The translations under genes and the position numbers were made by a program. A stretch of 64,000 nucleotides of DNA from Gemmatimonadota bacterium. GTDB lineage: Bacteria > Gemmatimonadota > Gemmatimonadetes > Gemmatimonadales > Gemmatimonadaceae. Below are positions 1,875-27,125 of the stretch, piece by piece (position 1 is the first letter of the stretch; each line of letters opens with the position of its first letter). The notes beneath the pieces were generated by a model. The model ran no database searches and was not told the origin of the DNA. It worked only from the letters and a program-made list of their open reading frames with translations. The DNA lies in assembly GCA_028287285.1 (NCBI GenBank), contig JAQBPY010000254.1, forward strand, positions 1,507 through 65,506, in the 5' to 3' direction.

Positions 1875-1887
1875 CACGCTGTGACGG

Positions 1888-1913
1888 GCGCCGGTGGCCA
1901 GGGCCACCGGCGC
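1888..1913 (+). terminator. GC-rich hairpin after peptidase 1 (possible terminator or attenuator, no U-tract)
   Basis: gcgccggtggcc-ag-ggccaccggcgc has perfect 12-nt complementary arms, 14 nt after the stop codon. No T-run follows. Confidence 0.35.
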
Positions 1914-1952
1914 TGTCGCACGATTGCGGAGCACGGACAGTAGTTTTCCAAG

Positions 1953-6741: not shown

Positions 6742-6742
6742 C

Positions 6743-7693
6743 ATGACGGACGGCGCGCCGGCTCAACCGCCACGGCAGCGCGCCGCGCCATTTCGCCTCG
6801 CCCGGCTGGCGGCCGTCATCGTGCTTGCGGCGGCGTCCATACTGTACATGGGAACCGCACTCGCTCGCGCGCGCGGCAGTCTGCACAGCATCGCATGGCT
6901 GGCGCACCCGGGCGAGCTTGCGGCAAGCATCGCCATTCAGGCTGTGTCGCTGACGCTGGGCTGCCGCATCTGGTTCGAGATCCTTCAGCGGATCGCGCCC
7001 TCGCCCGTGACGGCAGTGCAGCACTGGCGCATCTGGGCACTCACGAATCCAACACGCTACATCCCCGGCCGCATCTGGCACGTGGCGTCGCTCGCGGCGT
7101 TCATGCGGTCTGCCGGCGTGACACCCGTCGCGATGCTGACGTCGATCGTGGTGCACATGTGGCTCTACGTCCTTGCCGCGTGCGCCATGGGACTCGTGCT
7201 GCTTCCGGTCACGCCAGCATCCGTGGCGGGGGCGGTGGCAGTACTGTGTGGCGTGGCCGCTGGAACGCACCCGCGCCCCCTTCGGGCGATGCTCCACATT
7301 GCATCACGCCTGAGCGGGCAGCCCGCACTCGAGTGGCGCAGCGGCTGGCTCCCAACCCTTGCACTTGTTGCTGCCGACGTGGGCATCCATTCGCTGAATG
7401 GGCTGGGCGTTAGCACGCTGTTAGGGGCAACAATGGATCTTCCCGTGAGCAGCTGGCTGCACGTCGCGGGCGCAAACGCGATCGCCTTCCTCGCCGGATA
7501 CGCCAGCATGGTTCCCGCAGGGCTCGGCGTGCGTGAAGCGACGTTGACGGCTCTTCTGGAGGGAAATTCAATGGCCGGAGGAGCCGCCGCGGCCGCGCTG
7601 GTGGTGCGTGCGGCGGCAACCTTCGTCGAAGTGCTGCTGGCGCTCGTCGCCGGGGTGATGCCAAGAGCTCAGGGGCCTGTTACCGGCGCGTAA
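6743..7693 (+). CDS. UPF0104 / LPG-synthase-TM-like 'flippase-like' membrane protein
   Basis: ATG at 6743, 1 nt after the yfhO-like stop. Polytopic, with YIPGRIWHVASL and VPAGLGVREATL (P-x-G-x-G-x-x-E type motif). The ORF-track extension to 6581 overlaps the upstream gene. Confidence 0.6.
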   Translation: MTDGAPAQPPRQRAAPFRLARLAAVIVLAAASILYMGTALARARGSLHSIAWLAHPGELAASIAIQAVSLTLGCRIWFEILQRIAPSPVTAVQHWRIWALTNPTRYIPGRIWHVASLAAFMRSAGVTPVAMLTSIVVHMWLYVLAACAMGLVLLPVTPASVAGAVAVLCGVAAGTHPRPLRAMLHIASRLSGQPALEWRSGWLPTLALVAADVGIHSLNGLGVSTLLGATMDLPVSSWLHVAGANAIAFLAGYASMVPAGLGVREATLTALLEGNSMAGGAAAAALVVRAAATFVEVLLALVAGVMPRAQGPVTGA

Positions 7694-9963
7694 CCGAGAC
7701 CGGTGGGTGCCTCGAGCACGTTCTTCCGCTCCCGGACCACGGTGAGCAGATCGAGCGCCGCGCCGATGCGCTGTACCTGTGCGCGGACCACCTGCGCAGG
7801 CCTGGCGGAATCACCCTTTTGCGGCAGGACGAAGCCCATGCGTGGCGCCTGCAGGGCGTAGGTGGAGTCCAGTCCGTCCGAAACGCCGAGTCCCACGCGC
7901 ATGTACAGGTAAGGCGCGTTCACAGATGGTATGTCCACCCACCGGCCCTGCCGCTCGAGTCCGGCGGGCCCGCGGAACGACTGCCACAACGCCAGCGTGC
8001 GCGGCACGTCCACGTAGCCGATGCCGGTGTTCACGGCGCCCGGTTCAGCGGCAGGATCGGCGACGAGCTTGCGCGCGAGACCATGCGTGATGAGATGCCC
8101 GCCGAGATACTTGTCCATGGCCGGCGTGCCGGCACCGCTGCTGAAGTAGATGGGACGGTTCACCCCCGCGTCATGGATGATCCGCAGCATGACGACCACG
8201 TCACGCGTGAGCATCGTGGGCGGGATGTCCACCTGAAAGCCATTGAGCTGCGCTCGGCTCGCACCCGTCTGCATCTCCTGCGGAATGGCGTTGGCCTCGC
8301 TCCGCGTCAGCGCCAGCACAGGGGTGAGCGGCCGCGCGGGAAAATTCCTGTAGATCGCGGGCCCCCGCGCTGCGTCATAGGGCTCGGGGGTCTTCACGAT
8401 CAGCTCGCGCACGTACCAGTCCGTCGCGAGATAGGCGAGCAGCACGATGGTCACGTCGCGACGCACACCGAGCACCTGCTGTGCGTACCACAGGGGAAAG
8501 GAATCGTTGTCGCCGCCCGTGAACAGCACGCCGTTGGGCTCCACGCTATTGAGCGCGTCGACGGCAAAGTCCTCCGCAAAGGTCTCCTTGCGGCGAGATG
8601 CGGCGCTCCAGTTCACGATAAGTGGCACGAGTGCCACGCACATCACCGGGCCGGCGATGTGCCAGTGACGGGGGCGGGGCACAACGGCGGCGCGTCCATC
8701 GAGCCCTCCGCTACCCGCGACCAGCTCCGCGATGCGGCGCCACACGAACGCCAGTCCCAGGCCGATCCATACCGAGAGCGCGGAATAGCTCCACAGGTAG
8801 AAGTAGTCCCGGTCGCGCACCTCGTGCAGTCGCGGATCCTGCACGCCCATGGCCATGGCCTGCGAGTAGCCGAGCTTGAAGTTCAGGTAGTAGATGAGCC
8901 CCGCGGTGAGCGTGGCAATGAGGGTCGCAAACGGCACGAAGCTGCGCCGGTCTGCCTTCCAGTGCGTATACCCTCCGGCACCGGCAAGCAGGAGCACCGC
9001 CACAGCGATGGCGCTCTGCCAATCCGGAGACATGCCGGCGGGATCACGGAACCACTGCCACTTGAAGTACAACCACCACATCCGCACCTGGTTGGGCAGG
9101 CTCTGCTGGCGATCGAGCAGCGAAGGCTTTGCGTACTGGGTGCGGTTGTTCTCGTAGAGAAACCGGTCGAGCGTTTCCCTGCTCACCGTGCATCCCCAAT
9201 GCGGTGCGCCATCCTCGCATGCCGACGGATGCCCTTCGTTGATTTCCAGCCGGAATGCCGACCGAATGGGCAGCATCGCGTATGGCGTGAGGCCGAGCAC
9301 GAAGAGCGCCGCGCACAGGGCGAGCAACCGCGGCCGCCTGAGCGTGCGGGGCTTCGTGTAGAGCACGGCTGCAAGCAGCGCGGGGCCGGCAAGCAGGCCG
9401 GCAATGTGAATGGTATAGCCGATGCCCAAGCGATAACACAGGAGGCCGAGCCGCTTGTCTGCCGCAGGCCCGTCCGGATCGCTTTGCCAGAGCAGCGTGG
9501 TCCAGAGGTCCAGCGTGAGCAGAAAGAGCGAAACGGTATAGACCTTCTCGTTCACGACCGACTGGTTCCAGACGGTGAACGCACTGGCGCCCACGAGCGC
9601 CGTGGCCGCGCCGGCAACACGCGCGCGCGACGGTGAGAGCCAGTTGCGCGCGACATGTTCGGTAACGAGAAACCACAGGCCGGCCGACAGGGCGCTGGCA
9701 AGTGCCACCAGCACGTTCAGGCGTCCCGCGACAGTTCGGGCAATTGGCAGCAGGGCGACCACGCGCCCGAGCAGCACGAAACCGGGATTGCCGGGCGGAT
9801 GCGGAATTCCAAGACGTGCCGCAGCGGCCACGTATTCGCCCGCATCCCACAAGCCGATCGTCGGCGATAATGTGACCAGATACAGCAGCAACGCGGCGGC
9901 GGACACGGCGCCCGCGGTGCGATACGATGGCGCGGAGAGCGGGCTCGCCCTGGAGTCACTCAT
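7669..9963 (-). CDS. DUF2723 (TMEM260-like) GT-C family membrane protein, paralog 1
   Basis: 764 aa. N-terminal LSPTIGLWDAGEYVAAAARLGIPHPPGNPGF is typical of DUF2723. Multiple TMs and a large C-terminal soluble domain. ATGA overlap with the upstream GT4 at 9960-9963. Confidence 0.7.
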   Translation of the reverse strand: MSDSRASPLSAPSYRTAGAVSAAALLLYLVTLSPTIGLWDAGEYVAAAARLGIPHPPGNPGFVLLGRVVALLPIARTVAGRLNVLVALASALSAGLWFLVTEHVARNWLSPSRARVAGAATALVGASAFTVWNQSVVNEKVYTVSLFLLTLDLWTTLLWQSDPDGPAADKRLGLLCYRLGIGYTIHIAGLLAGPALLAAVLYTKPRTLRRPRLLALCAALFVLGLTPYAMLPIRSAFRLEINEGHPSACEDGAPHWGCTVSRETLDRFLYENNRTQYAKPSLLDRQQSLPNQVRMWWLYFKWQWFRDPAGMSPDWQSAIAVAVLLLAGAGGYTHWKADRRSFVPFATLIATLTAGLIYYLNFKLGYSQAMAMGVQDPRLHEVRDRDYFYLWSYSALSVWIGLGLAFVWRRIAELVAGSGGLDGRAAVVPRPRHWHIAGPVMCVALVPLIVNWSAASRRKETFAEDFAVDALNSVEPNGVLFTGGDNDSFPLWYAQQVLGVRRDVTIVLLAYLATDWYVRELIVKTPEPYDAARGPAIYRNFPARPLTPVLALTRSEANAIPQEMQTGASRAQLNGFQVDIPPTMLTRDVVVMLRIIHDAGVNRPIYFSSGAGTPAMDKYLGGHLITHGLARKLVADPAAEPGAVNTGIGYVDVPRTLALWQSFRGPAGLERQGRWVDIPSVNAPYLYMRVGLGVSDGLDSTYALQAPRMGFVLPQKGDSARPAQVVRAQVQRIGAALDLLTVVRERKNVLEAPTGLGYAPVTGP

Positions 9964-11078
9964 GGGCGCGCGGCCGTCAACAGCAACGCCTCGAACGCAT
10001 CGGCGGCGCGCGCCCAGGTAAAAGTCTGCGCGTACGCGCGCGCCCGCGCGCCTAGCACACGCGCCAGCTCCGCATCGAGCGCGATGCGCCGCATGGCCCC
10101 CGCGAGCTCGGTGACGTTTCCATGCGGCACCAGGATACCCGTCTGTCCATCACGAACAGCGTCGCGCAGGCCCGGCGAATCACTCGCAATGGACGGTGTG
10201 CCGTATGTTGCGGCATCGAGAATGCTCATGCCCCAACCCTCCTTGGCGGACGTGATGACGTTGGCCCATGCGCGCGACATGAGTGCGAATTTTTCCTCCT
10301 CCGGGACGAAGCCGCGAAACTCTACCCGGTGCGCGATACCGAGACGCTCTGCGTGCCGCCGCAGCGCGCGCTCCTCCGAGCCGCGCCCCGCGACGATCAA
10401 CCGCGCCTCGACGTGCTCCTGCGTCAGCCGCGCCATGGCCTGGAGGAGCAGGTCGACGCGCTTGTACGGCTGCAAGCGTCCAATATAGAGAAACTCCGGA
10501 GTGTCGGCGCGCGCCACGTCATCGTGCTGCGGCGGCGCTGACTCGGGAATGCCGTTGTGGATTACCCGCACGGCGTCGCGATGCCGCGTGCGGCGGCGGG
10601 CTTCGACGGCCGAGCTGTCCGAGACGGCGACGACCGGAACCGACGCATACAGCGGCAGCAGCGCGTGCTCCAGCAACACCGTCGCCGTCGCCACCAATGG
10701 ATTGGCGGCGGCGAACGCGGAGGCACCGAATAGATGGTGCACCATCAACACCACCGGCCCGCGCACCCACACCGGCGTCGCCATCGGAATCTTGTTGAGG
10801 TCCTCGACGACTACGTCGAAGTGCCGGTCATGCCGCTCCCGATACCATGCCCGTGCGGCGACCGGGTACGTCCACCGGTTCCCACGGCGATGGACGGCAA
10901 TGCCATCGAGCTCCTGGTCGGGCGCCGCGCCGGCCCACGAGGATGACACGAGCGTCACGCGGTGGCCCCGCCGCGCGAGACGGCCAAAGATCTCGTGGAG
11001 GTTCGTTTCCGCGCCTCCGGCCTCAGGATGCTCACGATCCAGCCAGTTGAAAACGAGCAGATCAAGACAGGGTGGCAC
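9960..11078 (-). CDS. Glycosyltransferase family 4
   Basis: LLVFNWLDREHPEAGGAE N-terminus and KEGWGMSILDAATYGTPSIASDSPGLRDAVRDGQTGILVP motif. Start placed at in-frame GTG 11078. The 590-aa track ORF (to 11732) would run antisense through the GT2 gene. Confidence 0.7.
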   Translation of the reverse strand: MPPCLDLLVFNWLDREHPEAGGAETNLHEIFGRLARRGHRVTLVSSSWAGAAPDQELDGIAVHRRGNRWTYPVAARAWYRERHDRHFDVVVEDLNKIPMATPVWVRGPVVLMVHHLFGASAFAAANPLVATATVLLEHALLPLYASVPVVAVSDSSAVEARRRTRHRDAVRVIHNGIPESAPPQHDDVARADTPEFLYIGRLQPYKRVDLLLQAMARLTQEHVEARLIVAGRGSEERALRRHAERLGIAHRVEFRGFVPEEEKFALMSRAWANVITSAKEGWGMSILDAATYGTPSIASDSPGLRDAVRDGQTGILVPHGNVTELAGAMRRIALDAELARVLGARARAYAQTFTWARAADAFEALLLTAARP

Positions 11079-11114
11079 TGGCGGGACTGTCGGACGCGAC
11101 GATACTGTGCGGGG

Positions 11115-12101
11115 GTGGCAGACTACGAAGGCGCGCCCGCGGAGGCAAGCGCACGACGAAATTTCGCCGTGATCATTCCGGCGTTCAATGAACGCGAGAA
11201 TGTCGCGCCGCTCTTCCGTGCGCTCGCGCTCGCTTTCGAGACTCACGACCTTGCTGGCGAGCTCGTGTTCGTGGACGATGGATCCACCGACGGTACGTTC
11301 GAGGCAGCGGAAGCCGAGGCGCGGCAATTTGCCGGGCCGGCCACCGTGGTTCGGCATGGGCGCAATCTTGGCAAGACCGAAGCGATCCTGCGTGGCGTGC
11401 AGGCCACCACGCGGCGCTTCGTGGTACTGCTCGACGCCGATCTGCAGTATGCACCGGATGACATTCCTCGATTCCTCGACCTGCTTGATCAGGGATGGGA
11501 TGTCGTGGCCGGCCGGAAGGTGGGCGCATATGCCAAGCAGGCGGTGAGCGGCATCTACAACTGGCTTGCGATTCGGTTGTTCGGCGTCACGGTGCGTGAT
11601 GGAAATTCCATGAAGGCGTGCCGGCGGGCGCTGCTCCTGGAAATTCCACTCCGGCACAACTGGCACCGGTTCTTCGTGGTGCTGGCGCACATGCGCGGGT
11701 ACCGTCTTGCGGAGATCGACGTCGCACTCCATCCGCGTGTGGCCGGCGTGGCCAAGTTCGATTCACGCGGCCGCATCCTGGGGGGAGTCGGCGACCTGAT
11801 CGTGGTGTGGCTGGCGCTACGAGTCAGTACGAAGCCGATGCACGTGTTCGGAGGCATCGGGCTGGTGACATTCGGCGTGGGGGCGGTGGTCGGGTTGATC
11901 ACGCTGGCGCTGCGCGCAGCCAACGTTTTGCCGCCGCCCATTGGCTACCGGCCCCTGGTAGGTCTCGCTGCGTTGCTGCTGCTGGTGGGAATCACGCTGT
12001 TCGCGATGGGGATCATCGCGGAACTGGTGGCCATTCTGCACGCGGAGATCGAGTCGCTGCGACGGGAGCTGCGGATACGGACCGGGGCGGGAGCCTCTTG
12101 A
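11115..12101 (+). CDS. GT2 polyprenyl-phosphate sugar synthase (GtrB/DPM1/ArnC-like) with C-terminal TM helices
   Basis: FAVIIPAFNERENV, VFVDDGSTDGT and LLDADLQYAPDD motifs. Two C-terminal hydrophobic helices (IGLVTFGVGAVVGLITL, AALLLLVGITLFAMGIIAELV). Start uncertain: GTG 11115 is preferred, ATG 11028 is possible. Confidence 0.7.
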   Translation: MADYEGAPAEASARRNFAVIIPAFNERENVAPLFRALALAFETHDLAGELVFVDDGSTDGTFEAAEAEARQFAGPATVVRHGRNLGKTEAILRGVQATTRRFVVLLDADLQYAPDDIPRFLDLLDQGWDVVAGRKVGAYAKQAVSGIYNWLAIRLFGVTVRDGNSMKACRRALLLEIPLRHNWHRFFVVLAHMRGYRLAEIDVALHPRVAGVAKFDSRGRILGGVGDLIVVWLALRVSTKPMHVFGGIGLVTFGVGAVVGLITLALRAANVLPPPIGYRPLVGLAALLLLVGITLFAMGIIAELVAILHAEIESLRRELRIRTGAGAS

Positions 12102-12213
12102 CTCGGCACTTCGGTTGTGCTCGCTAGCGACTCACCGTGGCGAATCCGTCAAGACAAAACGCTTACCAAGCACTTCTATTATTCCCCACGGGCGGTGACT
12201 AGATTGGGCCCTA

Positions 12214-12235
12214 TGCGTCTCTGACAAGAGACGCA
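12214..12235. other. Perfect 9-bp stem / 4-nt loop hairpin in the GT2-peptidase 2 intergenic region
   Basis: tgcgtctct-gaca-agagacgca. No U-tract follows. Function unknown. Confidence 0.3.
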
Positions 12236-12356
12236 CGGAGACAACGCCGGATGTGATGCGGTGCAGCGCGCATCGGCTTGAGCTGTTGAAGCCGCCAATG
12301 ATGCCGATGCTTCGCCGGCAGACGTGTTGATCTCCTTTCCGAGTAGAACTCCAAGA

Positions 12357-14960
12357 ATGCCACCAAGCAAGTTCGCGACCATTGCTGCCAGTGTTGTTCT
12401 TCTGTCCTGCGGAGATCGCCAGATTTCCGCTCCAGGAAGCAACGCCGCCGTACCGTCTGCGCCTGTGCCAGGTGCGTCCAATGCGGTCACGCTGCAGCGA
12501 CTTGCCTGTTCGGCACGCGTCGACACGAAGTCCGTGCGCTGTGCCCTTGCGCCCACCGGCGTGAGCCCTGACCTGATCGTTGGTGGCCAGGGTACGTATG
12601 TGACGCTCGCATCGTCGAACGTGACCTATGACGCCGGTACGCATGTCCTCAGCTCTGACGTGTCGGTTACGAACCTCATTCCGCAGGCCCTCGGCACCAA
12701 CGACGGCGTGACCGGCGATGGTACGGGCTTGCGGATCTTCTTTGATCAGGTGCCCACGACGACGAGCGGTACGGGTGTCGTCACGGTGTCGAACGCCACG
12801 GGAACAGGCACGTTCACCGCGTCGAACCAGCCGTATTTCCTGTATCCGGGCACGGCGCTTGGCGGCGACGACATTCTGTCCACGAATGAGACGTCCGCAA
12901 CGGTGCAGTGGCAGTTCACGCTGGACCCCACCGTCACCACATTCGAGTTCTACGTGTACGTGAGTGCGAACGTGCACTATCCCAACGGCTATGTGGACGC
13001 GGTGCAGGCGGACACGATGCTGAATCAGGCCGCGACGTCGTCCATCACGGCAACGTCGCGCACGGCCGTGGGCAATGCGGTGACGGGCTCCACGCTCTCG
13101 TACGCGAGCACGGCGCCGGCCGTCGCGACGGTCAATACCTCGGGTGTCATCACGGCCGTTGCGCCTGGTTTCGCCACGATCAACATCACGAGCACCGAAT
13201 CGACGACGGGCTCGGTGACCATCCAGGTGTGTCCGAATCTCGCCGTGGGCGAGGTGTACAACACCAGTGGCGCGAGCGGCGAGAACATCTGCGTGGGCGG
13301 CGGTGCATCTGCGATGGAATACACCGTGATGCCGGTCAACAGCGGCGGTACGTCGCAGTCGCTCACCGTAACCGGCACTGGGATCCAGGCTGTGACGGGC
13401 CCTCCAACGCCGGATCGCATTCCCGTGAGCCGGCTGCTTCTGACCGCGAGCGCCGCCCCCACAGGCGGCATCCAGAAAGGCGCATTCGGCGGTGAATACT
13501 CGATGAACGCCGCGGCGGTCGACGGCGCCAGCCTGGTGCACCAGGTTGCCATGGCCGAGTCGCGTCACGGTCCGTCCGTCGAGCAGACTCCGGATGCCGC
13601 GGATGGAGTGACGGCCGCAGATGGCGGAAGCCAGCGGCTGATGTGGTACCCGCCCCGGTCGGACGAGGGGAACGACGACTCAGCCCACTCCCCCGGGCTG
13701 GCGCTCATGAAGGCAGCGATGCCTGTCAGGGACGATTTGACGCCCACTGTTGGCGCGCTGCTGGAGTACAATACGACCAACGCCTGCTCAGGCTCCCCCT
13801 CCCTGCGAACCGGCATGGTGAGAACGGTGTCGGCCCATGCGGTCGTCGTCGGCGATACGGCGAACCCGGCAGGTGGATTCACGACGGCACAATACGACTC
13901 CATCGCACTCGAATTCGATACGATTGCGTATCCCACGATCACAGGCAGCTTCGGCACGCCAAGGGATATGGACAGCAACGGTGGCCGCATTGTCCTGTTC
14001 TTTACGCGGGCCGTCAACGAGCTGTCGCCTCCCGCGTCGTCATCGGTAAACCTTGGGTTCTTTGCACGGAAGGATGTCTCCACCACGACCGAGTGCACCA
14101 ATAGCAACGCGGCGGAGATTCTCTACATGCTGGTGCCCGATCCAACGGGGACGGTAAACTCCAACGTGCGTACTGTTTCGTTCGTGCGAGGCAATACCAC
14201 GGGCACGACCGGGCATGAGCTCGTCCATATCATCAACACGGACTACCGGTATTCTCACGGCGCGCCGTATGAGGCGGGCTGGCTGGACGAGGCACTGGCG
14301 CACATCGGCGAGGAGCTGATGTTCTATCGCGCGTCCGTGGGCCTGTCTCCGCGGCAGAACATCCAGCTTTCGACGTTGACGACGGGTCCCAATGCGTCGA
14401 GACGGGTTGCGGCGTTCAACGCGTATGCGAATCAGAATTTTGGCAGGTTTCGCGCTTGGCTCCAGCGGCCGGACACGGCCGGTCTCGTGAACACGCAGGG
14501 TGCTTCCCTGGCGCGGCGCGGGTTCGGGTGGGCGTTTCTCCGCTACGCGGCAGACCGGATCAACGGCACGGATGCGACGTTTTTCAGGGCGCTGGTGTCA
14601 CAGGACACGGGGGTCGTGAACCTGCAGGCGGCGATCGGCGTCGGAGCGAACGTCCATGACTGGATCCGCGATTGTATCACCGGAATCTACGCGGACGACA
14701 ACGCGTTCACGGTGTCGAGCGACTACCAGCATCCATCATGGAACTACCGGTCCGTGTACGGGGGGCTGGGTGGCTTTCCGTTGCTGGCACGGCCACTGAC
14801 AAACAATGCTGGGCTTCCACTCAGTTACGGGGCAGGTGGTACCACGGCCTATACCCGGTTCGGTGTGGCTGCGGCAACGTATGCGAACATCAAGATCCAG
14901 GCTCCCGGCGCGACAACGCCCGCTGCGACGGTGAGAATGGCGTTGGTACGGACGAAATAG
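12357..14960 (+). CDS. HExxH zinc metallopeptidase lipoprotein with Big_2 domain, paralog 2
   Basis: Lipoprotein signal MPPSKFATIAASVVLLSCGD (lipobox LLSC). Big_2-like segment ends in GFATINITSTESTTGSVTIQV. HExxH site is TGHELVHIIN, with DEALAHIGEE downstream. Ends in RTK. The track start GTG 12324 adds 11 aa. Confidence 0.75.
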   Translation: MPPSKFATIAASVVLLSCGDRQISAPGSNAAVPSAPVPGASNAVTLQRLACSARVDTKSVRCALAPTGVSPDLIVGGQGTYVTLASSNVTYDAGTHVLSSDVSVTNLIPQALGTNDGVTGDGTGLRIFFDQVPTTTSGTGVVTVSNATGTGTFTASNQPYFLYPGTALGGDDILSTNETSATVQWQFTLDPTVTTFEFYVYVSANVHYPNGYVDAVQADTMLNQAATSSITATSRTAVGNAVTGSTLSYASTAPAVATVNTSGVITAVAPGFATINITSTESTTGSVTIQVCPNLAVGEVYNTSGASGENICVGGGASAMEYTVMPVNSGGTSQSLTVTGTGIQAVTGPPTPDRIPVSRLLLTASAAPTGGIQKGAFGGEYSMNAAAVDGASLVHQVAMAESRHGPSVEQTPDAADGVTAADGGSQRLMWYPPRSDEGNDDSAHSPGLALMKAAMPVRDDLTPTVGALLEYNTTNACSGSPSLRTGMVRTVSAHAVVVGDTANPAGGFTTAQYDSIALEFDTIAYPTITGSFGTPRDMDSNGGRIVLFFTRAVNELSPPASSSVNLGFFARKDVSTTTECTNSNAAEILYMLVPDPTGTVNSNVRTVSFVRGNTTGTTGHELVHIINTDYRYSHGAPYEAGWLDEALAHIGEELMFYRASVGLSPRQNIQLSTLTTGPNASRRVAAFNAYANQNFGRFRAWLQRPDTAGLVNTQGASLARRGFGWAFLRYAADRINGTDATFFRALVSQDTGVVNLQAAIGVGANVHDWIRDCITGIYADDNAFTVSSDYQHPSWNYRSVYGGLGGFPLLARPLTNNAGLPLSYGAGGTTAYTRFGVAAATYANIKIQAPGATTPAATVRMALVRTK

Positions 14961-15034
14961 ACCGCACGGTTCCAGAAGCAAGGGGCAAAGCAGCCCCCAC
15001 CGCAGCATTCGCCCTTTTCACGCAGGATGAACAG

Positions 15035-15214
15035 ATGTCAAAAGCGATACCACGCACCAACGAATTCTCAGGTACGAACCATTCGGAGAACCTGACTCGC
15101 TCTCCGTGGGAGATGCCGACGCTCACCAAGCTTCCGCCGTTGACCGAGTTGACCCTGGTCACCGGTGCTGGCATTCATGGTGGCGGAGGAAGCAGCGGCG
15201 GAAGCGTTTTCTAG
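15035..15214 (+). CDS. Candidate RiPP precursor peptide (59 aa, Cys-free, Gly-rich C-terminus)
   Basis: ATG 15035 is preceded by AGGA 7 nt upstream. Peptide: MSKAIPRTNEFSGTNHSENLTRSPWEMPTLTKLPPLTELTLVTGAGIHGGGGSSGGSVF. It lies in the 315-nt gap between the peptidase and the PqqD-like gene. ELTLVTGA fits E(-8)L(-7)xxV(-4)xG(-2)A(-1) of double-glycine leaders. By hand count about two thirds of codons end in G/C; I judge this below neighbouring genes but did not count them, so coding status is uncertain. Confidence 0.45.
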   Translation: MSKAIPRTNEFSGTNHSENLTRSPWEMPTLTKLPPLTELTLVTGAGIHGGGGSSGGSVF

Positions 15215-15275: not shown

Positions 15276-15551
15276 TCAGGTCGCCTGACGAATCAGGGTC
15301 TGTTCGCTGAGGTCGCGGAGCAGTGCATTCACGGCATCGGTTGCCACATTCGAGGAAACATCGAAGGTGGCGACCAGTTGCGCCGTGATGCTATCCGTAT
15401 CAAGGCCGCTCTCCAGCAACTTCCATACGTGCGCACCCACGCGATTGAGCCGGAAGTAGTGTTTGCTGCCCATGTGGAGCAGGATCGCCTCGCCGTCCAG
15501 GTGTGACACGAGGACATCGGGTGAGGGCACGTAGCGCAGCGCGGTGCTCAT
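15276..15551 (-). CDS. PqqD-family protein (stand-alone RiPP recognition element candidate)
   Basis: 91 aa. VLVSHLDGEAILLHMGSKHYFRLNRVGAHVWKLLESGLDTDSI matches the PqqD pattern (dge.vll...yy.LN..ga.iW.ll). Its start codon abuts the stop of the upstream propeller gene. Confidence 0.75.
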   Translation of the reverse strand: MSTALRYVPSPDVLVSHLDGEAILLHMGSKHYFRLNRVGAHVWKLLESGLDTDSITAQLVATFDVSSNVATDAVNALLRDLSEQTLIRQAT

Positions 15552-16709
15552 CTATCTGATTGCCGCCGAATGTTCGGTGGAGAGCGCGGCCACGGGAATG
15601 GCGTGGAGCTCAAATGGAATGGCAGGATCCACCCAGCGCAGCGACGACTCGTTCCCGCTGAAGGTGGTGAACACGATGCGTCCATCGGAAAGCCATGCAG
15701 GCTGGCCGCTCGACGCCGTGTTCCGCGTGATTTGAGCGGTCGCATTGGTCCGCAGATCGCGCACGAAGATTTCCGTCGCTCCGCCAATGACCGCGGCATA
15801 CGCGAGACGGAAGCCATCGGGACTCCATGCCGGCTCCACTTCCACGCCCTGCGTTCCCGAGCCCGTCACCAGCACCGGCGTGGCACCCGCTGTGGCCGCA
15901 CTCGTGAACAGGCCCGAGGACCCCGTATTCGTCGAGGCAGACACGAACGCGATCTTGTCCGAGGCAGGCGCCCATGTGGGAGAGGATTCAGGCGCCGACG
16001 GGCTGCCGAAGGTCGCAACGGCAAGACGCGCCGCGCCCGACACGGGAGTCGTGGCCGCCGCCAGGTTGAGCGACGCGATCCATATCTTGCTCACGCCGCT
16101 CGCGTTGGTGGTGTACAGGACGTGCTTCGCATCCGGAGCAATGGACGGCTGCGTCTCACTCTCGTCCGACGTGGTCAGGCGCCGCTCCACGCCCGTGGCC
16201 AGCGACAACGAATACAGCTCCGCATTCCCGTCGCGAAAGCTGGAGTAGAGCACGACGTCGCCCGCGACGGTGGGCCTGGCATCGTCGCCCGCGTTGGTGG
16301 TGAGGCGCGTGAGTGACGTGCCGTCGAGCGCAACGCGATAGATGTCGCGATTCCCGGCGGCGCGTCCGTCGAACACGATGAGCGGAGGGGTGGCTACGGT
16401 GACGGACAGCGAGAGGCTGGTACCGTCGGGGGCGGTGGCGGTGAACACCACCACGCCGGCCTTGGTGAACTGCACGTCGCCGCTGGCCGCGATGGTCACC
16501 GCATCGGCGGGGCTGGCGGCAAGCGCTGACACGGCGGCGACGGAAGAGCCGTCGCCCGTGCTGCTCCGCGCACCCACGTGTGCCGTGAGGCCGCGCTCGG
16601 TGCGGCCGGCGACGGCCAGCGAATACGGCGACGAAGGTGCCACGCCCTTGTCGCCGCCGCAGGCGACGGCGGCGAGGAGAATCACAACGGCTCCGCGGAC
16701 TATACGCAT
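15552..16709 (-). CDS. TolB-like (PD40) beta-propeller lipoprotein
   Basis: Signal MRIVRGAVVILLAAVACGGD (lipobox). Repeated PD40-like units (RLTTNAGDDARPTVAGDVVLYSS, RLTTSDESETQPSIAPDAKHVLYTT, EVEPAWSPDGFRLAY, SSGQPAWLSDGRIVF). Start chosen at ATG 16709, a 10-nt overlap with the rSAM stop. The track ORF to 17120 overlaps the rSAM gene. Confidence 0.7.
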   Translation of the reverse strand: MRIVRGAVVILLAAVACGGDKGVAPSSPYSLAVAGRTERGLTAHVGARSSTGDGSSVAAVSALAASPADAVTIAASGDVQFTKAGVVVFTATAPDGTSLSLSVTVATPPLIVFDGRAAGNRDIYRVALDGTSLTRLTTNAGDDARPTVAGDVVLYSSFRDGNAELYSLSLATGVERRLTTSDESETQPSIAPDAKHVLYTTNASGVSKIWIASLNLAAATTPVSGAARLAVATFGSPSAPESSPTWAPASDKIAFVSASTNTGSSGLFTSAATAGATPVLVTGSGTQGVEVEPAWSPDGFRLAYAAVIGGATEIFVRDLRTNATAQITRNTASSGQPAWLSDGRIVFTTFSGNESSLRWVDPAIPFELHAIPVAALSTEHSAAIR

Positions 16710-17692
16710 GCGGCGACTCCCTGCCATGCACTTGCCTCGCCCTCGGCGAGCCACTTGAGCTTTCCGAGCGCGTGCGCGCAACGGAGACACGGGAGCGTGG
16801 CGAGCGCGCCCGAAAAATTGGATGGTGCCGCCTTGGCGCGAAGGGACGCCATTGACTCGAGATAGATGTTCCATGCATCGCGGAACGACATGTCGTGCAG
16901 GTCTGCCACGACGTCGCTCTCGGTGAATCCATATTCGGACATCTGGCAGCAGAGGGACACGCGTCCGTTGGCGTCCACGTACACGCGATTGAGCGCCATC
17001 GTATCGCAGACAGTCTCCGTCTTTCCGTCGAGCGGCGGCGCGCCGTAGTCGAGCTGAATGACGGTGCGCCGGTGCGGCTCGGCGGCGATGGCGTCGATCT
17101 CCCTCTGAACGGCGGGCCATTCATGCGGTGCGAGATCGCTGTCGCGTACAACGCTGCCGGGCACCGGCTGCGGCAGGATATAGTGCAGGCGGAGGCAGCC
17201 GAGGCTCTCGGCGAGATCCGCGACCGTGCGCACTTCGTGCCGGTCCCTCCGATCGATGACGATGGAGAGCGCGTTGGGAATCTGACGGCTGGTGAGCAGC
17301 GCAATGGCCATGAGCACGCGGCGAAAGCTGTCACGCCCGCGATCTGCATCGTGTGTCTCTTCCGAGCCGCCGGACAGGCTCACCCGCACGTATGACGGTG
17401 GCCAGCGGTCGAACGAGGGCATCATGCGGCGCATGTGCCACCCATTGGTGACCAGGCGGTATGCGATGCCTCGTGCCGCCAGCGCGGAGACGATCTCGTC
17501 CCAGCCCTTGTGCAGCGTGGGCTCTCCGCCGGTAAAGCTGGCCGTGACGCTTCCGAAGAGCTCCAGGGCCTCGTCGCACGTGCGTATGACGAGCTCGGGC
17601 TCCAGCGAGCGTACCTTCAGCACGTCATCGCGAATGCAGTGCGGACAGCGAAGGTTGCAATGTGTCGTAAGCGCAAAACCCAGCAGCATCAA
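16700..17692 (-). CDS. Radical SAM enzyme with partial SPASM/twitch-like C-terminal domain
   Basis: N-terminal LTTHCNLRCPHCIRDD is CxxxCxxC. C-terminal C-x13-G-x4-CC (CDTMALNRVYVDANGRVSLCC) matches the first half of the SPASM motif. A later CLRC is present, but the full CX2CX5CX3C is absent. Confidence 0.8.
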   Translation of the reverse strand: MMLLGFALTTHCNLRCPHCIRDDVLKVRSLEPELVIRTCDEALELFGSVTASFTGGEPTLHKGWDEIVSALAARGIAYRLVTNGWHMRRMMPSFDRWPPSYVRVSLSGGSEETHDADRGRDSFRRVLMAIALLTSRQIPNALSIVIDRRDRHEVRTVADLAESLGCLRLHYILPQPVPGSVVRDSDLAPHEWPAVQREIDAIAAEPHRRTVIQLDYGAPPLDGKTETVCDTMALNRVYVDANGRVSLCCQMSEYGFTESDVVADLHDMSFRDAWNIYLESMASLRAKAAPSNFSGALATLPCLRCAHALGKLKWLAEGEASAWQGVAACV

Positions 17693-17863: not shown

Positions 17864-20248
17864 ATGATGTCACGGATGCAGTCTGGACCGCCGCTTCAGC
17901 CAGCCGAATGGCCTGTGATCACGCTTCGGGCGATCGCCGTATACCTGCTGTTGGCGTTCATGGCCTTCGCCCCTGCGTTCTTTCCATGGCAGCAGATCGC
18001 CGGCACGGACTACGTCACCGGCGGCTTCTACTTCCTGGAGTATGCCGCGCGCGCGCGGCAGGGGGGCCACTTCCCCACGTGGGTTCCCTACATCTTTGGC
18101 GGGGTTCCCATGTATGCGAACCCGGGCAGTCTGTTCTACCCCGCGCGGATGCTGTTCATCGAGATCCTGCCCCTCGAGCGTGTGATGCCGGCGCTGTACG
18201 TCGTGCAATTCGCGCTCGCCGGCATCGGCATGCATCTCTTTGCGCGGACCCTGGGTGTGCGTCCGTGGGTCGCGTTCCTTGGCGGCCTGCTCTATGAGTT
18301 CACCGGGGTCACGTTCTCGTACGTGTATGCCGGTCATGATGGCCGCATCATAGGCGCGACGCTCGCGCCGTTCCTGTTCTACTTCGTGACGGTGGCCGTG
18401 CGCACCGGCCGCGCATCCTGGTTCGCCGGCATTGCCGCGAGCGTCGGACTGATGCTGCTTTCCTTCCAGCTCCAGAGCACCTATTACGTGCTGCTCGGTG
18501 CCGGGGCATGGGCCGTGTTTCTCCTGGCGCGCGCGCGCGCCGGCATGCCCACGCCGGTGCTCGTGCGCCGTGCCGTGCTGGGTGGCGCGGCGGTGGCGTT
18601 CGGCTTCATGCTCGCTGCCGTGAATCTGCTTCCGTTCTCCGGCTATGTGGAGGATTCCCCGCGCAGCAGCGTGGCCAAGCGGGACTACGCGTTTTCCACG
18701 CAGTTCTCCATGCCGGTGGTGGAGACCGTGGGCCTGGCGGTGCCGGAGCAGGCGGGCCTGCTCGAGGAGTACAAGGGCGACAACCCCTTCAAGCTACATA
18801 CCGAGTACGTGGGCGCGATCGTCCTGCTGCTGCTCGTGGTGGGAGCGATGAGCTTTCAGCGGGATGCCGTCTGGCAGTTCATGGCCGGCCTCGCGCTGTT
18901 CATGCTGACCGTCTGTTACGGCTCGTATACGCCGCTCTACTCCCTCTATTACCGCGTTCTCCCCGGTACGACGAAGTTCCGCTCGCCCTCCATTGCGCTT
19001 TTCATGGTGTCCTTTGCGCTGGTCGTCATGGCCGTGCTCACACTGGAGAGCATGGCCGATGCGCTCGACGAACGACCAGCGTCGCGCGGCTTCGTCCTTC
19101 CGCGGCGCCTGCTGACGGCGCTCATCGGCGCGTCGGTGCTCATCGTCACCGTCGCACTCGGCACCGCGCTCGATGGCGGACACCGGGCGCTGGGGTGGGC
19201 GCGCTTTGGCGTGTGCCTGCTGCTCGCCTCGCTCATCGTCCGCACCTGGATCTTCGGGCGCATCAGGGTGCGCACGGCCTCCATACTGCTCAGCGTCCTG
19301 GCGGTGGCGGATCTCTGGGTCGTGGATCGCAACTTCCTGTGGACGCAGCCTGTCTCCGACATCGTCTACGCGGCGGATGACGTGGTTCACTTTCTCAAGT
19401 CCATGCCCGATGCGCGCGTGTGGGTATTTCCATTTCCCAATGCCGCGGGCGCGGAGCACTACATGGGCAACAAACGCTTCCCGCCCAATAGCGACTACCT
19501 AATGCACTTCGGCATCAGGCAGGCGGGAGGCGAGCATGGCAACCAGCCTTTCCGCTGGAATCGCCTCGCTGGAATCGGGACCACCGGTAATGTGGACTGG
19601 CACAACTTCGTGGAGTATCCCGCCATTCTTGGGGCGGCGGGAGTGAAGTACATCGTGAGCGCGGTGTCGCTGAGCATGGTGAAGGGCAAATCCCGCATGG
19701 GAATGAAAGGGCTGCGCGAGCTGTACCATGGAAGCGCGTACGTATACGAGAACGAGAGCGCCGTTCCGCGCGCCACGCTCGTGCCCTCCGCCGTGTCGGT
19801 GTCGTCGCCACAGGTCGCGGTCATCGCCATGCGGAACGCCGATTGGGACGCACGCAGGGTAGCGGTGGTGGAAGGTGCGTTGCCGGAGCTCGCGGATACG
19901 TCAGCGGCCGGCATGTCGGCGGCCAGCACGGTACGCATGGTCGTGGATGAACCCGAGCACGTTGCCATTCACGTGGATGCCGAACGCCCGGCGCTCCTCG
20001 TGCTCAGCGACAATTATGTCGAAGGATGGACGGCGCGCGTGGATGGAAGCACGGTCCCCATCCTGCGCACCAACCTCGCTTTTCGCGGCGTGCCCGTATC
20101 GAAGGGATCGCATGACGTGGTCTTCGAGTTCGCCCCACGCCGACTTTACGCGGGCATGTGGATGTCGTCGGTTGGCTGGACGGTGCTCCTGATCTCCGTC
20201 GCAGGGCTCGTGTTTACAGGACGGCGGCGCGAGCCGGCCATCGGCTAA
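17864..20248 (+). CDS. YfhO-like polytopic membrane protein (GT-C candidate), paralog 2
   Basis: 794 aa, co-linear by eye with 4291..6741 (GTDYVTGGFYFLEY, WVPYIFGGVPMYANPG, FSTQFSMP, HFGIRQAGGEHGNQ). C-terminal TM present. Confidence 0.6.
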   Translation: MMSRMQSGPPLQPAEWPVITLRAIAVYLLLAFMAFAPAFFPWQQIAGTDYVTGGFYFLEYAARARQGGHFPTWVPYIFGGVPMYANPGSLFYPARMLFIEILPLERVMPALYVVQFALAGIGMHLFARTLGVRPWVAFLGGLLYEFTGVTFSYVYAGHDGRIIGATLAPFLFYFVTVAVRTGRASWFAGIAASVGLMLLSFQLQSTYYVLLGAGAWAVFLLARARAGMPTPVLVRRAVLGGAAVAFGFMLAAVNLLPFSGYVEDSPRSSVAKRDYAFSTQFSMPVVETVGLAVPEQAGLLEEYKGDNPFKLHTEYVGAIVLLLLVVGAMSFQRDAVWQFMAGLALFMLTVCYGSYTPLYSLYYRVLPGTTKFRSPSIALFMVSFALVVMAVLTLESMADALDERPASRGFVLPRRLLTALIGASVLIVTVALGTALDGGHRALGWARFGVCLLLASLIVRTWIFGRIRVRTASILLSVLAVADLWVVDRNFLWTQPVSDIVYAADDVVHFLKSMPDARVWVFPFPNAAGAEHYMGNKRFPPNSDYLMHFGIRQAGGEHGNQPFRWNRLAGIGTTGNVDWHNFVEYPAILGAAGVKYIVSAVSLSMVKGKSRMGMKGLRELYHGSAYVYENESAVPRATLVPSAVSVSSPQVAVIAMRNADWDARRVAVVEGALPELADTSAAGMSAASTVRMVVDEPEHVAIHVDAERPALLVLSDNYVEGWTARVDGSTVPILRTNLAFRGVPVSKGSHDVVFEFAPRRLYAGMWMSSVGWTVLLISVAGLVFTGRRREPAIG

Positions 20249-22500
20249 CGGCCGATGACGGGGGCGTAGCCCAGCCCGGTGGGCGCCTCGAGCACGGGGC
20301 CGCGGCGGAGATAGCGCACAAAATCCACCGCACGCCCCATCCGCAGCACATCGTCGCGCAGGCGTTTCGCGCCCGCGTGATTGCCCGTTGAATCCTGTGC
20401 ATCGGCAAGGGCAACGCCGATGCGCAGGTACAGGTAGGGCATGTTCGCCGAGGCTTCGTCCGTCCATACGCCGCGCGCACCCATGGATTCGCGTGCGTGG
20501 AGATGATCCCAGAGCGATTGCGTCCGGGCCACGTCGAGCAGGCCCACATGCTTCGTCATGATGGCGCCGGGTATCGCGGCGGCGTTCGGCACGACCTTGC
20601 GCGCGAGACCCTGGGTGAGCAGGTGGGGCTTGAGGAAATTGTCGATGACTTCAGACCCTGCGGCCCCGCTGAAGTACACAGGCCGCGCCCGTCCCGCGGT
20701 CTGGATGATGCGCATCATGACCAGCACGTCGCGGTCGATGGTCATTGCCGGAATGGTGAGGTCGAAACCCGGCATTCGAACGCTCTGTGCCCGGAGTGTG
20801 CGTGTATGTGCGGGAATCGAGTCAGCCTGCGCGAGCGTGAAATCGAGCACGGGCTGGCGAAGCGGCGTCACCGGCACGGTGCGGTAGATGGCCGGCCCCG
20901 TGGCGGCATCGTACGGCTCGGGCACGCGTGCGATCAGCTCCCGCGCGTACCAGTCGGTGGACAGGTATGGCGTGAGCACGACGGATACATCGCGGCGCAC
21001 GCCAAGCACCTGCTGTGCGAACCAGAGAGGAAACGAATCGTTGTCGCCGCCGGTAAAGAGAATGGCATTGGGCTCGACGCTGTTGAGCATGTCGACGGCG
21101 AAGTCCTGGGCGAAGCGATCCGCTCGGCGCGATGCCGAGCTCCAATTGGCGAAGAACGGAATGAGCGCGACGGCAAGGACGACCGACGTGAGGGGCCAGC
21201 GCCGCTCGAGCAGCTCCGCCCATGGATCATCCTGGGATGGGGTATTGGTGGTGGAGAACTCCGACAGGGCCTTCCAGACAAAGGCGAGACCCAGGCCGAT
21301 CCAGATGGCGAGCGCGGAGAAGCTCCAGAGGTAGAAGTAATCCCTGTCGCGTGTTTCGCGCGCGTTGGGATCGGCAATCATCATGGTGATGGCCTGGGTG
21401 TAGCCGAGCTTGAAGTTCAGGTAGACGATGAGGCCGGCTGTGAGCGTGGCGACCAGCGTGGCGAAGGGGACGAATGTCTGCCGGTCGTAGCGCCAGTGCG
21501 CGTAGGCTCCCGCACCGGCGAGGAGCAGCATGAGGATGGCGAGGGCACTCTGGGCCTCGGGAGCGGTCCACCGCACGTCTCGCAGCCACTGCCACTTGAA
21601 GTACATCCACCACATGGCGACCTGGTTGGGCAGTGTCTGCTGCCGGTCCAGGATGGAGGGCTTGGCGTACTGTGTTCGATTGTGCGCGTAGAGAAATCGG
21701 TTGACGGTCTCGCGGCTGACGGTGCAGCCCCAGTGTGGACGTCCATCTTCGCACGCCGTTGGATGCCCCTCATTGATGTCGAGGCGAAATGCGGCGCGAA
21801 TGGGCAGTGCGGCGAAGGGTGTGAACCCCAACAGGAACAATGCACCGCATGCCATGAGGAATCGGGTGCGGCGCAGCGTGCTCGGCCGAGTGTACAGCAC
21901 TGCGGCGAGCACTGCGGGGCCGGCAAGCAGGCCGGCGATGTGCACGGTATATCCGAGGCCCAGCCGGTAGCAGATGAGCATGAGCCGACGGTCCGCGGCG
22001 GGGCCATCGGGGTTGGACTGCCATCGGATCGCGGTCCAGACGTCGAGCACGAGGAGGAAGAGCGAGATGGTGTAGACCTTCTCGTTCACGACGGACTGGT
22101 TCCAGACGGTAAACGCGGTGGCGCCGAGGATCGCGCAGGCGGCGGCAGCGTATCGTGCCCGTGGCACGGTGAGCCAGTGTCGCACGACGTGCTCGGCGAC
22201 CAGGAACCAGAGACCGGAGGACAGTGCACTCGCGAGCGCGACCAGGACGTTGAGGCGCATCGCCGCGGTGCGGGCGAGGGGCAGCATCGTCGCTAGGCGG
22301 CCGAGCAGCAGGAATCCGGGATTTCCGGGCGGATGCGGAATGCCCATGCCCACGGCGGCGGCAACGTATTCGCCGGAGTCCCAGAGCCCGATGGTTGGTG
22401 CGAGCGTGAGCAGGTAGAGCGCAAAAACGCCGAGTGCTACGCCCGCTGCCGTTCGGTAGGAGGGCGTGGCGATCACATGGTCATTCTGCGCGATCGTCAA
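20245..22500 (-). CDS. DUF2723 (TMEM260-like) GT-C family membrane protein, paralog 2
   Basis: LAPTIGLWDSGEYVAAAVGMGIPHPPGNPGF. Co-linear with 7669..9963 down to the C-terminus (LEAPTGLGYAPVIGR vs LEAPTGLGYAPVTGP). Track start 22500 is TTG; GTG 22476 is an alternative. Confidence 0.7.
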   Translation of the reverse strand: MTIAQNDHVIATPSYRTAAGVALGVFALYLLTLAPTIGLWDSGEYVAAAVGMGIPHPPGNPGFLLLGRLATMLPLARTAAMRLNVLVALASALSSGLWFLVAEHVVRHWLTVPRARYAAAACAILGATAFTVWNQSVVNEKVYTISLFLLVLDVWTAIRWQSNPDGPAADRRLMLICYRLGLGYTVHIAGLLAGPAVLAAVLYTRPSTLRRTRFLMACGALFLLGFTPFAALPIRAAFRLDINEGHPTACEDGRPHWGCTVSRETVNRFLYAHNRTQYAKPSILDRQQTLPNQVAMWWMYFKWQWLRDVRWTAPEAQSALAILMLLLAGAGAYAHWRYDRQTFVPFATLVATLTAGLIVYLNFKLGYTQAITMMIADPNARETRDRDYFYLWSFSALAIWIGLGLAFVWKALSEFSTTNTPSQDDPWAELLERRWPLTSVVLAVALIPFFANWSSASRRADRFAQDFAVDMLNSVEPNAILFTGGDNDSFPLWFAQQVLGVRRDVSVVLTPYLSTDWYARELIARVPEPYDAATGPAIYRTVPVTPLRQPVLDFTLAQADSIPAHTRTLRAQSVRMPGFDLTIPAMTIDRDVLVMMRIIQTAGRARPVYFSGAAGSEVIDNFLKPHLLTQGLARKVVPNAAAIPGAIMTKHVGLLDVARTQSLWDHLHARESMGARGVWTDEASANMPYLYLRIGVALADAQDSTGNHAGAKRLRDDVLRMGRAVDFVRYLRRGPVLEAPTGLGYAPVIGR

Positions 22501-26789: not shown

Positions 26790-27125
26790 ATGCCGTTCAC
26801 CTGGCAGATCAGCATCAACAGGAGCAGGAATGCCGCTGGCTACGTGTACGCACCTGCCGTCCTCGACCCCGTTGCGATTGGCGACGAGATCATCTTCATC
26901 AACAACGACAGCACGCCGCACTGGCCTGGACTTGTCGATGCCACCGGAATGGCGCCCAGCTCGGCGACTTACTTCATGCGGTATCAGATCCCACCGCACA
27001 CGTCGTCCACGCCGTGGGTGCCTGGCGTAAACGGCACGGTGAGCTTTGCCGACTCGCTCGACACGAAGCCCTCGCCGCCCGCAGGCACCATTGTCGTGGC
27101 GGGCATCACGACGGTGCCTGAATGA
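26790..27125 (+). CDS. Small cupredoxin-like protein lacking Cys (hypothetical)
   Basis: 111 aa. Codons are predominantly G/C-ending on inspection (not counted). VAIGDEIIFINNDSTPHWP resembles the cupredoxin GD-x-v-x-f-x-N-x-D-x-x-x-H strand, but the protein has no Cys. ATGA overlap with the multicopper oxidase gene. Confidence 0.45.
   Translation: MPFTWQISINRSRNAAGYVYAPAVLDPVAIGDEIIFINNDSTPHWPGLVDATGMAPSSATYFMRYQIPPHTSSTPWVPGVNGTVSFADSLDTKPSPPAGTIVVAGITTVPE

Follow-up and report, generated by a model that had tools for sequence, protein, structure and literature searches.

A 64,000-nucleotide (nt) stretch of a Gemmatimonadota genome assembly (GCA_028287285.1, contig JAQBPY010000254.1, forward-strand positions 1,507–65,506; the window) carries a 59-codon open reading frame (ORF) that, judged by its conservation, is a real and strongly conserved small gene. 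The gene belongs to a five-part cassette consisting of the peptide, a radical S-adenosylmethionine (rSAM) enzyme, a discrete lasso-type PqqD/RiPP recognition element (RRE; RiPP, peptide made by the ribosome and modified after translation), a TolB-like lipoprotein, and a second lipoprotein whose N-terminal domain is conserved. The following features make up the cassette, with position 1 as the first letter of the window.

12324..14960, plus strand: cassette lipoprotein, 878 aa; its stop lies 74 nt 5′ of the peptide gene on the same strand
15024..15027, plus strand: putative Shine-Dalgarno-like AGGA, 7 nt 5′ of the ATG, as read from the letters
15035..15214, plus strand: precursor peptide gene, 59 aa plus stop, translated as MSKAIPRTNEFSGTNHSENLTRSPWEMPTLTKLPPLTELTLVTGAGIHGGGGSSGGSVF, no Cys
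15276..15551, minus strand: discrete PqqD-family RRE, 91 aa, PF05402 E=1.5e-15
15552..16733, minus strand: TolB-like PD40 beta-propeller protein, 393 aa, PD40 E=3.8e-19, lipobox-like N-terminus (…LLAAVAC/GG)
16700..17692, minus strand: rSAM enzyme, 330 aa, CNLRCPHC motif, PF04055 E=5.5e-21, partial SPASM match

The three genes on the minus strand make up an operon that reads rSAM, TolB-like, PqqD. The peptide gene stands behind the lipoprotein gene and converges on this operon, with 61 nt between the PqqD and peptide stop codons. At its 3′ end, the rSAM gene runs 34 nt past the predicted TolB-like start (16700..16733), an overlap consistent with translational coupling.

The initial annotation of the ORF reported its 59-residue, Cys-free translation exactly. 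It also estimated that about two thirds of codons end in G or C, judged this to be below neighboring genes, and doubted that the ORF is real. Counting gave a third-position GC content (GC3) of 40/60 (0.667) vs 0.76–0.82 in neighboring genes, as estimated. The 59-aa product is already in NCBI as JWM95_3189, a hypothetical protein of a Gemmatimonadetes metagenome-assembled genome (MAG). This frame also contains a longer ORF that begins at TTG (14672..15214), but it runs over the upstream gene and has no support from the homologs. A protein database search with the single peptide returned the peptide itself and one homolog only. The nearest homolog, P0002, has a fully diverged N-terminal half and keeps PWExPTL..LP.LTELTLVTGA.IHGGG..SSGG.VF. 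Over 28 aligned codons, the two genes have 9 identical, 14 synonymous, and 5 non-synonymous codons, a pattern by which the peptide gene is under purifying selection. A family profile built from 66 peptides matched 642 protein clusters at E<=0.1 among 5.8 billion proteins. All of the best 120 of these 642 matches are 45–78 aa long; within the same 120, every named source is a hypothetical protein and no Pfam domain occurs. The stop codon falls 0–5 residues past the conserved C-terminal motif in about 153 of 165 homologous ORFs. The ORF is judged real because of the 642 homologous clusters, purifying selection, conserved stop position, and the two-way synteny described below. Chance occurrence of the ORF in high-GC DNA, or a non-coding element in its place, would fit the low GC3 and the lack of a sigma-70-type promoter in a promoter and terminator scan around the ORF, which gave nothing else of use; an inverted-repeat search likewise yielded nothing useful. 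That alternative is refuted by the conservation, an Rfam scan of the peptide region matched no family, and its probability is virtually nil.

Conservation of the cassette was traced in a scan with one genome per species, which gave 94 rSAM relatives, of which 80 loci were kept. Many of these loci are short contigs. All 80 come from Gemmatimonadota or unclassified MAGs and include Longimicrobium, Gemmatimonadales, HR33, and a Gemmatimonas phototrophica MAG (L062). The initial annotation had proposed the ORF as a precursor for the nearby rSAM enzyme and suggested looking for similar small ORFs beside homologous rSAM genes. With a two-sequence peptide profile, a homologous small ORF was found in 72/80 rSAM-anchored loci, and most of these ORFs lie on the rSAM strand and end 10–60 nt upstream of the rSAM gene. 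A metagenome scan keyed solely on the peptide motif ELPRLTDLT (10-sequence alignment) returned a further set of 80 loci. About 70 of its peptide ORFs have at least 400 nt downstream; the next gene is the rSAM in 52, the cassette lipoprotein in about 13, and no cassette gene in about 2. The peptide-rSAM linkage holds both ways.

The rSAM is the most constant partner of the peptide. PqqD was found in 41 of the 80 related loci, the TolB-like protein in 46, and the lipoprotein N-domain in 42, in shuffled order. L061 encodes peptide, rSAM, lipoprotein, TolB-like protein, and PqqD on one strand. The window layout, with the lipoprotein followed by the peptide and convergent with the enzyme operon, is a rearranged form of the canonical order. 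Two peptide paralogs each are present in L087, L090, L091, L093, L102, L115, L161, and L040; in several of these loci one copy is directly upstream of a lipoprotein gene and the other directly upstream of the rSAM gene. Frameshifted peptide copies occur in L127/L128 and L160. In Longimicrobium loci, no PqqD, TolB-like, or N-domain homolog was found within about 6 kb, and a different 632-aa lipoprotein lies downstream. L007, read by hand, has the peptide, the rSAM, then this different kind of lipoprotein, and no PqqD. Crude ORF calling is unreliable in these very high-GC loci.

Residue counts were made on 210 distinct peptides numbered from the leader Trp, with W-x-x-P and LP used to set the register. 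Position 1 is W in 210/210. Position 4 is P in 210/210, as the register requires, and is invariant in 66/66 aligned peptides. Position 6 is V, L, or I in 208/210, positions 9–12 read L-P-x-L (LP required for the register), and L15, P16, and L18 are at least 90% conserved in alignment A1. Thr occupies position 16 in 209/210 and Leu position 17 in 208/210; position 19 is T or S in 207/210, and position 20 is G in 178/210. The leader pattern of the family is W-x-x-P-x-[V/L]-x9-T. A spacer of variable length separates position 20 from an I-x-G motif, which is followed by a Gly-rich stretch; Gly makes up 37% of the family core. In the window peptide, the conserved elements are as follows.

15107..15124, plus strand: leader motif W25-E-M-P28-T-L30, fits [Y/W]xxPx[L/V/I], predicted site for the discrete RRE
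15152..15154, plus strand: Thr40, 15 residues past W25, in the register of lasso Thr(-2) and linear polyphosphorylated peptide (LPP) Thr(-1)
15173..15181, plus strand: core motif I47-H48-G49 (I-x-G), where conservation in the core is highest, with I and G at least 90% conserved
15203..15211, plus strand: C-terminal motif S57-V58-F59, [S/T]-[V/I/C]-[F/I..], from family conservation

This leader resembles those of lasso peptides and LPPs. Discrete lasso RREs recognize [Y/W]xxPx[L/V/I/F/A] (PMC10368454, PMC13381572), and lasso precursors have YxxPxL at -17 to -12 with Thr at -2 (PMC10368454). Paeninodin-like lasso leaders use WxxP, and LPP leaders have Y at -16 and are cleaved after Thr(-1) (PMC13381572). 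Since the Thr register equals that of lasso and LPP leaders, the leader is predicted to end at T40 or L41. The window leader would thus span about residues 1–40/41 and the Gly/Ser-rich core about residues 41/42–59, (L)VTGAGIHGGGGSSGGSVF. Both lasso-type leader features, W-x-x-P-x-[V/L/I] and the Thr register, are present in the family, and the RRE is discrete. The best NCBIfam matches of PqqD are lasso PqqD/RRE chaperones, below cut-off (55 bits vs 80). A lasso peptide was considered and rejected for want of a cyclase and an acceptor residue. The asparagine-synthetase-like cyclase and the B2 cysteine protease are absent from the window cassette and from the conserved neighbor families. The first core residue is G, A, S, or C in 19/210, D or E occurs at positions 7–9 in 62/210, and the window core has neither D nor E. 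Single-sequence scans of all 66 aligned members matched rhodolasso in 3 (best E=0.0011), lasso_leader_L3 in 1, PqqA in 1, and nothing else; from such matches the kinship is resemblance, not membership.

The predicted boundary lies 4–5 residues 5′ of the site proposed by the initial annotation. There, a double-glycine leader would be cut after G44-A45 by a C39 peptidase/ABC exporter, and the 14-residue core GIHGGGGSSGGSVF would either be altered at its C-terminal Val-Phe, as in mycofactocin MftA, or become a His-x-x cyclophane. The spacing in the window peptide was read correctly: a cut after A45 places E38 at -8, L39 at -7, V42 at -4, G44 at -2, and A45 at -1, and leaves the 14 residues G46–F59. 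Gly at position 20 and a G-[GAS] pair in 121/210 (58%) also favor this proposal, as do the conserved C-terminal [S/T]-V-F and an MftC model among the better generic matches of the rSAM. As a family feature, however, double-glycine cleavage does not hold up. The site reads G-P or G-D in 43/210, the spacer varies in length, and both the window cassette and the conserved neighbors lack a C39/ABC gene. The x of I-x-G is P in 126/210, G in 35, D in 21, and H in only 3, which argues against a His-x-x cyclophane. The terminal S-V-F was rightly singled out as part of a conserved motif (TVF 122, TCF 36, VIP 19, and SVF 7 of 210). Its likeness to the MftA terminus does not hold across the family, since the last residue is F in 169/210, P in 30, and Tyr in none, and gene fusions described below continue past Phe. 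The MftC equivalog model TIGR03962 scores 55.4 bits against the rSAM, far from its cut-off of 265. This double-glycine, MftA-like route is very improbable.

Cysteines in the core occur as pairs or not at all: 163/210 cores have none, 47/210 have exactly two, and no core has one or three. In two-Cys cores, one Cys is at or beside I-x-G and the other stands in place of V or F in the terminal motif. Apart from this pairing, the peptide sequences give no internal hint that the two conserved core motifs come together. Two types of two-Cys core were seen, I-x-G-x-C…T-C-F (Longimicrobium) and I-P-C…V-C-P; examples are L007 (5805..5969), L012, and L038. The window core contains no Cys, Trp, Tyr, Lys, Asp, or Glu. 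The Cys donors of sactipeptides and ranthipeptides are missing from the window core and from the 163 Cys-free cores counted above. No conserved aromatic-x-x motif of the triceptide type is present in the core among the 210 peptides, His included.

The rSAM enzyme is RRE-free and carries CX3CX2C (C12-x3-C16-x2-C19), invariant in 75 rSAM sequences. Only five C-terminal Cys are conserved in the same sequences, C229-x13-G-x4-C248-C249 … C302-x2-C305, and the full seven-Cys SPASM motif for two auxiliary clusters was not found. Pfam SPASM matches at 20.7 bits (cut-off 21.5) over profile positions 1–44 of 67 only. From this Cys pattern, the C-terminal region is a truncated, Twitch-like SPASM domain; the pattern resembles that of BtrN and other Twitch enzymes with a single auxiliary cluster. 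Among solved structures, PqqE is closest in sequence (6c8v, E=3.6e-10), and all NCBIfam equivalog models score far below cut-off.

Several known rSAM systems share parts of this arrangement. Pyrroloquinoline quinone (PQQ) biosynthesis likewise combines a short peptide with a free PqqD and an rSAM that has no RRE fused to it, and PqqE is the nearest structure. The family leader is also presumably similar to the PqqA leader (W-x-x-P-x-F…E-V-T). However, the Glu/Tyr cross-link pair is missing: the Glu-x3-Tyr positions are D/E and Q or variable in the family, with no conserved Tyr. PqqB, PqqC, and PqqF are absent, and five C-terminal Cys are conserved in the rSAM instead of seven. PQQ models score low (PqqE 50 bits, cut-off 381; PqqD 21, cut-off 46), and PF08042 matches 1/66 peptides at E=0.14. 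Mycofactocin is similar in its C-terminal Val-aromatic end, which follows a Gly, and in an rSAM that depends on an RRE, but here no terminal Tyr occurs, the C-terminus is often Pro or extended by fusion, and MftD, MftE, and MftF are absent. Quinohemoprotein amine dehydrogenase maturation (QhpC/QhpD/QhpB/QhpE) is presumably a functional parallel, in which a small polypeptide is rSAM-modified in the cytoplasm and then meets a periplasmic beta-propeller partner and a protease. It presumably differs in its Cys-Asp/Glu thioethers, Trp-derived quinone, heme subunit, and exporter, none of which has a counterpart here, and no sequence kinship is known beyond the RRE. The cyclopropylglycine synthases TvgB and TigE also act on Cys-free substrates with conserved Val/Ile in Gly/Ser/Thr-rich peptide motifs. 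The GYW motif that ligates their auxiliary cluster is strictly conserved (PMC10878394). A cyclopropyl synthase was rejected: the window rSAM lacks GYW and has QMSEYGF after C248-C249, and it differs further in a non-repetitive core and an RRE that is discrete, not fused.

An HPr-kinase-like P-loop gene and/or an NTP_transf_5 gene is present in about 35/80 related loci. HPr-kinase-like and NTP-transferase enzymes are the tailoring pair of paeninodin, pseudomycoidin, and LPPs (PMC8498205, PMC13381572). LPPs are described by Popov et al. 2026 (PMC13381572) and reviewed in PMC8498205. The cassette resembles LPP and paeninodin-like clusters in its discrete lasso-type RRE, its [Y/W]xxPx[V/L] leader with Thr 15 residues past the aromatic residue, the kinase and transferase pair in about 40% of related loci, and its glycosyltransferase-rich surroundings. 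The peptide could accordingly be tailored by phosphorylation and then glycosylation of a conserved Ser/Thr (T43 or S57), with the rSAM as an accessory. T43 lies three residues past T40, the position of LPP phospho-Ser3, and falls at family position 19, where T or S is nearly universal. Against this stands the window itself, since tblastn found neither kinase nor NTP-transferase encoded in its 64 kb. The rSAM is the constant partner here, and no macrolactam cyclase, B2 protease, signal peptidase I of the archaeal type (SpI), or MsbA-like exporter is among the conserved neighbors of the 80 loci. Of the LPP set of HprK-like kinase, NTP-transferase, SpI-type peptidase, MsbA-like exporter, and RRE, only the RRE was found here. 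The two lipoproteins, the short Gly-rich core, and the lack of Asp and Glu in the window core are further differences. LPP-like tailoring as the main modification is quite unlikely.

The lipoprotein in the window has a lipobox (LLSC) at residue 29, a beta-rich N-domain (about residues 50–300), Big_2, and a C-terminal HExxH domain that resembles the M30-type metalloprotease lugdulysin (7bb8, E=4e-5). Across the cassette, lipoproteins share the N-terminal part only, comprising the lipobox, a Cys pair, and the beta-rich domain of about 250 residues. The C-terminal part has been exchanged between lineages. It is M30-like with HExxH in the window, L068, and L052; L057 has Big_2 and a leishmanolysin-like M8 domain (PF01457, E=1.5e-6), a combination found in few loci; and L054 and L064 have HExxH at the motif level. 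Most lipoproteins instead carry propeller-like repeats of about 40 residues, 'GTILHYDGxxW', with no Pfam match. An HExxH protease was considered as a universal cassette member and rejected because the C-terminal domain varies, most matches covering only the N-terminal residues from about 60 to 300. The TolB model scores 114 bits against the TolB-like protein (cut-off 343). No exporter or C39/ABC gene was found among scanned window genes from 1953 to 29341 or in the conserved neighbor families of the 80 loci.

In at least 10 genes, the whole peptide and the cassette lipoprotein's signal peptide are joined in frame, including two in L065, P0124–P0126, and four in L162 (P0123 among them). L065 carries two diverged tandem fusions (941..3412 and 3506..5959) directly upstream of the rSAM. 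In these, the complete peptide (…LPKLTDLTLLSPIGGGGGIGGSTVF) is joined to GLLLAVGLLFGVGAC/SDD and then the cassette lipoprotein in one frame. P0123–P0126, from independent assemblies, have the same architecture: peptide, GLLLAAGLLFG[IV][GS]AC (h-region and lipobox), and lipoprotein N-domain. L162, the contig of P0123, has four tandem fusions (about 6410..14419) in a long-read assembly with frameshift errors, in which rpoC is split. Neither an intergenic region nor a signal-peptide n-region has left a trace at the junctions, and the fusions are therefore real rather than read-through. They are restricted to one sub-lineage (…LTLLSPIGGGGGxGGSTVF). Fused genes run past Phe, so a free C-terminal carboxylate is not required. 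The fusions also link peptide and lipoprotein functionally, and the rSAM substrate in the fusion lineage is therefore the N-terminal extension of a pre-lipoprotein.

AlphaFold2 modeled the fusion P0125 with moderate quality (mean pLDDT 67.6); in the model, the lipoprotein domain folds as a beta-sandwich and the Gly core is disordered. Residues 21–30, the WxxPxV leader segment, have pLDDT of about 87 in this model, which does not include the RRE. Foldseek of the model against the PDB gave no match at E<=0.001. A separate read-through was seen in L151 (1344..2735), where a peptide ORF without stop continues by way of seven linker residues into the rSAM (…GSGSTV-LEEPAAM-LLGFALTEHCNLRCPHC); the two may be truly fused, or the assembly may be in error.

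The fusions raise the possibility that the peptide is a free-standing N-terminal module, a signal-peptide extension, of the cassette lipoprotein. It would then have no diffusible product, and its rSAM modification would control or mark lipoprotein export, processing, or function. The in-frame fusions, the adjoining peptide and lipoprotein genes in about 13 metagenome loci and the window, and the lack of an exporter in the cassette all fit. However, the fusions are confined to a single sub-lineage, and most members are free-standing 45–78-aa peptides beside an rSAM gene. Rosetta-stone fusions of this kind indicate a functional link, not its nature. This role is rather unlikely.

Taken with the conserved leader and its two-way linkage to the rSAM, the ORF very probably (about 85%) encodes the substrate peptide of an RRE-dependent rSAM peptide-modification system conserved across Gemmatimonadota. 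Some observations weigh against this assignment. The GC3 of the peptide ORF is lower than that of its neighbors, and its gene in the window converges on the rSAM operon instead of lying upstream of it. The window core offers no usual rSAM residue, and no known rSAM family fits. The cassette has no exporter or universal leader peptidase. Where HPr-kinase-like or NTP_transf_5 genes are present, phosphorylation or glycosylation may equal the rSAM step in weight. In Longimicrobium loci, RRE dependence may not be universal because no PqqD was detected nearby.

Maturation of the substrate peptide may proceed in four steps. First, the leader motif W25-x-x-P28-x-L30 and Thr40 would be bound by the discrete PqqD/RRE, by analogy with lasso and LPP leaders. 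The RRE would then present the Gly-rich core to the rSAM, which has predicted sites for one radical-SAM cluster and for a Twitch-like auxiliary cluster. This enzyme would abstract H from an unactivated aliphatic C-H in Ile47-x-Gly49 or Ser57-Val58-Phe59. A C-C cross-link that closes the Gly-rich loop between both motifs is the preferred guess; epimerization or an intra-residue change on Ile/Val may be about as likely. With the usual handles lacking in the core, the rSAM probably acts on unactivated Ile/Val or the backbone. Third, the leader would be removed near T40/L41, not after G44-A45. The lipoprotein HExxH domain is a candidate leader peptidase in the window, though it is absent from most relatives. 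Finally, the modified peptide would act with the two envelope lipoproteins, to which the gene fusions tie it. In one lineage, the whole peptide forms an N-terminal extension of the lipoprotein signal peptide.

More generally, the peptide may be a free-standing version of an rSAM-modified N-terminal extension of lipoprotein signal peptides, a module interchangeable between a small gene and a lipoprotein pre-sequence. The modified peptide would then work as a ligand, as a fragment kept in the membrane, or as a signal connected with the lipoproteins and TolB-like propeller, not a classical secreted antibiotic or cofactor. This idea is tentative and well short of even odds. If it is true, rSAM chemistry on a core without Cys or a conserved aromatic-x-x, as a cross-link centered on Ile/Val or as epimerization, would be new for the enzyme clade.

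RRE-dependent rSAM peptide maturation is already known; the lasso/LPP-type leader, truncated SPASM, lipoprotein partners, and natural fusions are unusual. Pfam and NCBIfam have no model for the peptide, for the lipoprotein domain, or, at equivalog level, for the rSAM, and no description of the cassette was found in the literature searched. A large, phylum-wide family is thus absent from these databases and that literature. The pairing of a lasso/LPP leader-RRE toolkit with an rSAM extends the recent finding that different RiPP classes reuse this toolkit. The tie to envelope lipoproteins instead of an exporter points to cell-envelope physiology in a poorly studied soil phylum, not to an antibiotic. 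With a short peptide and a cultured genus carrying the cassette (Gemmatimonas), the question is directly testable.

The surroundings of the cassette (1953..12101 and 17864..22500) are rich in glycosylation genes. These glycosylation and membrane-protein flanks are not conserved beside the cassette in other genomes. A region scan gave the following features.

1953..3155 and 3089..4294: GT4 glycosyltransferases
9960..~11102, minus strand: third GT4 glycosyltransferase
~11100..12101: GT2-looking ORF, judged by eye only
4291..6741 and 17864..20248: YfhO-like membrane proteins, paralogous, one on either side of the cassette
7669..9963 and 20245..22500: TMEM260-like/DUF2723 membrane proteins, paralogous, one on either side of the cassette
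23698..24336, minus strand: TspO/MBR family protein, appears unrelated to the cassette
27122..29341, plus strand: multicopper-oxidase-domain protein, appears unrelated to the cassette

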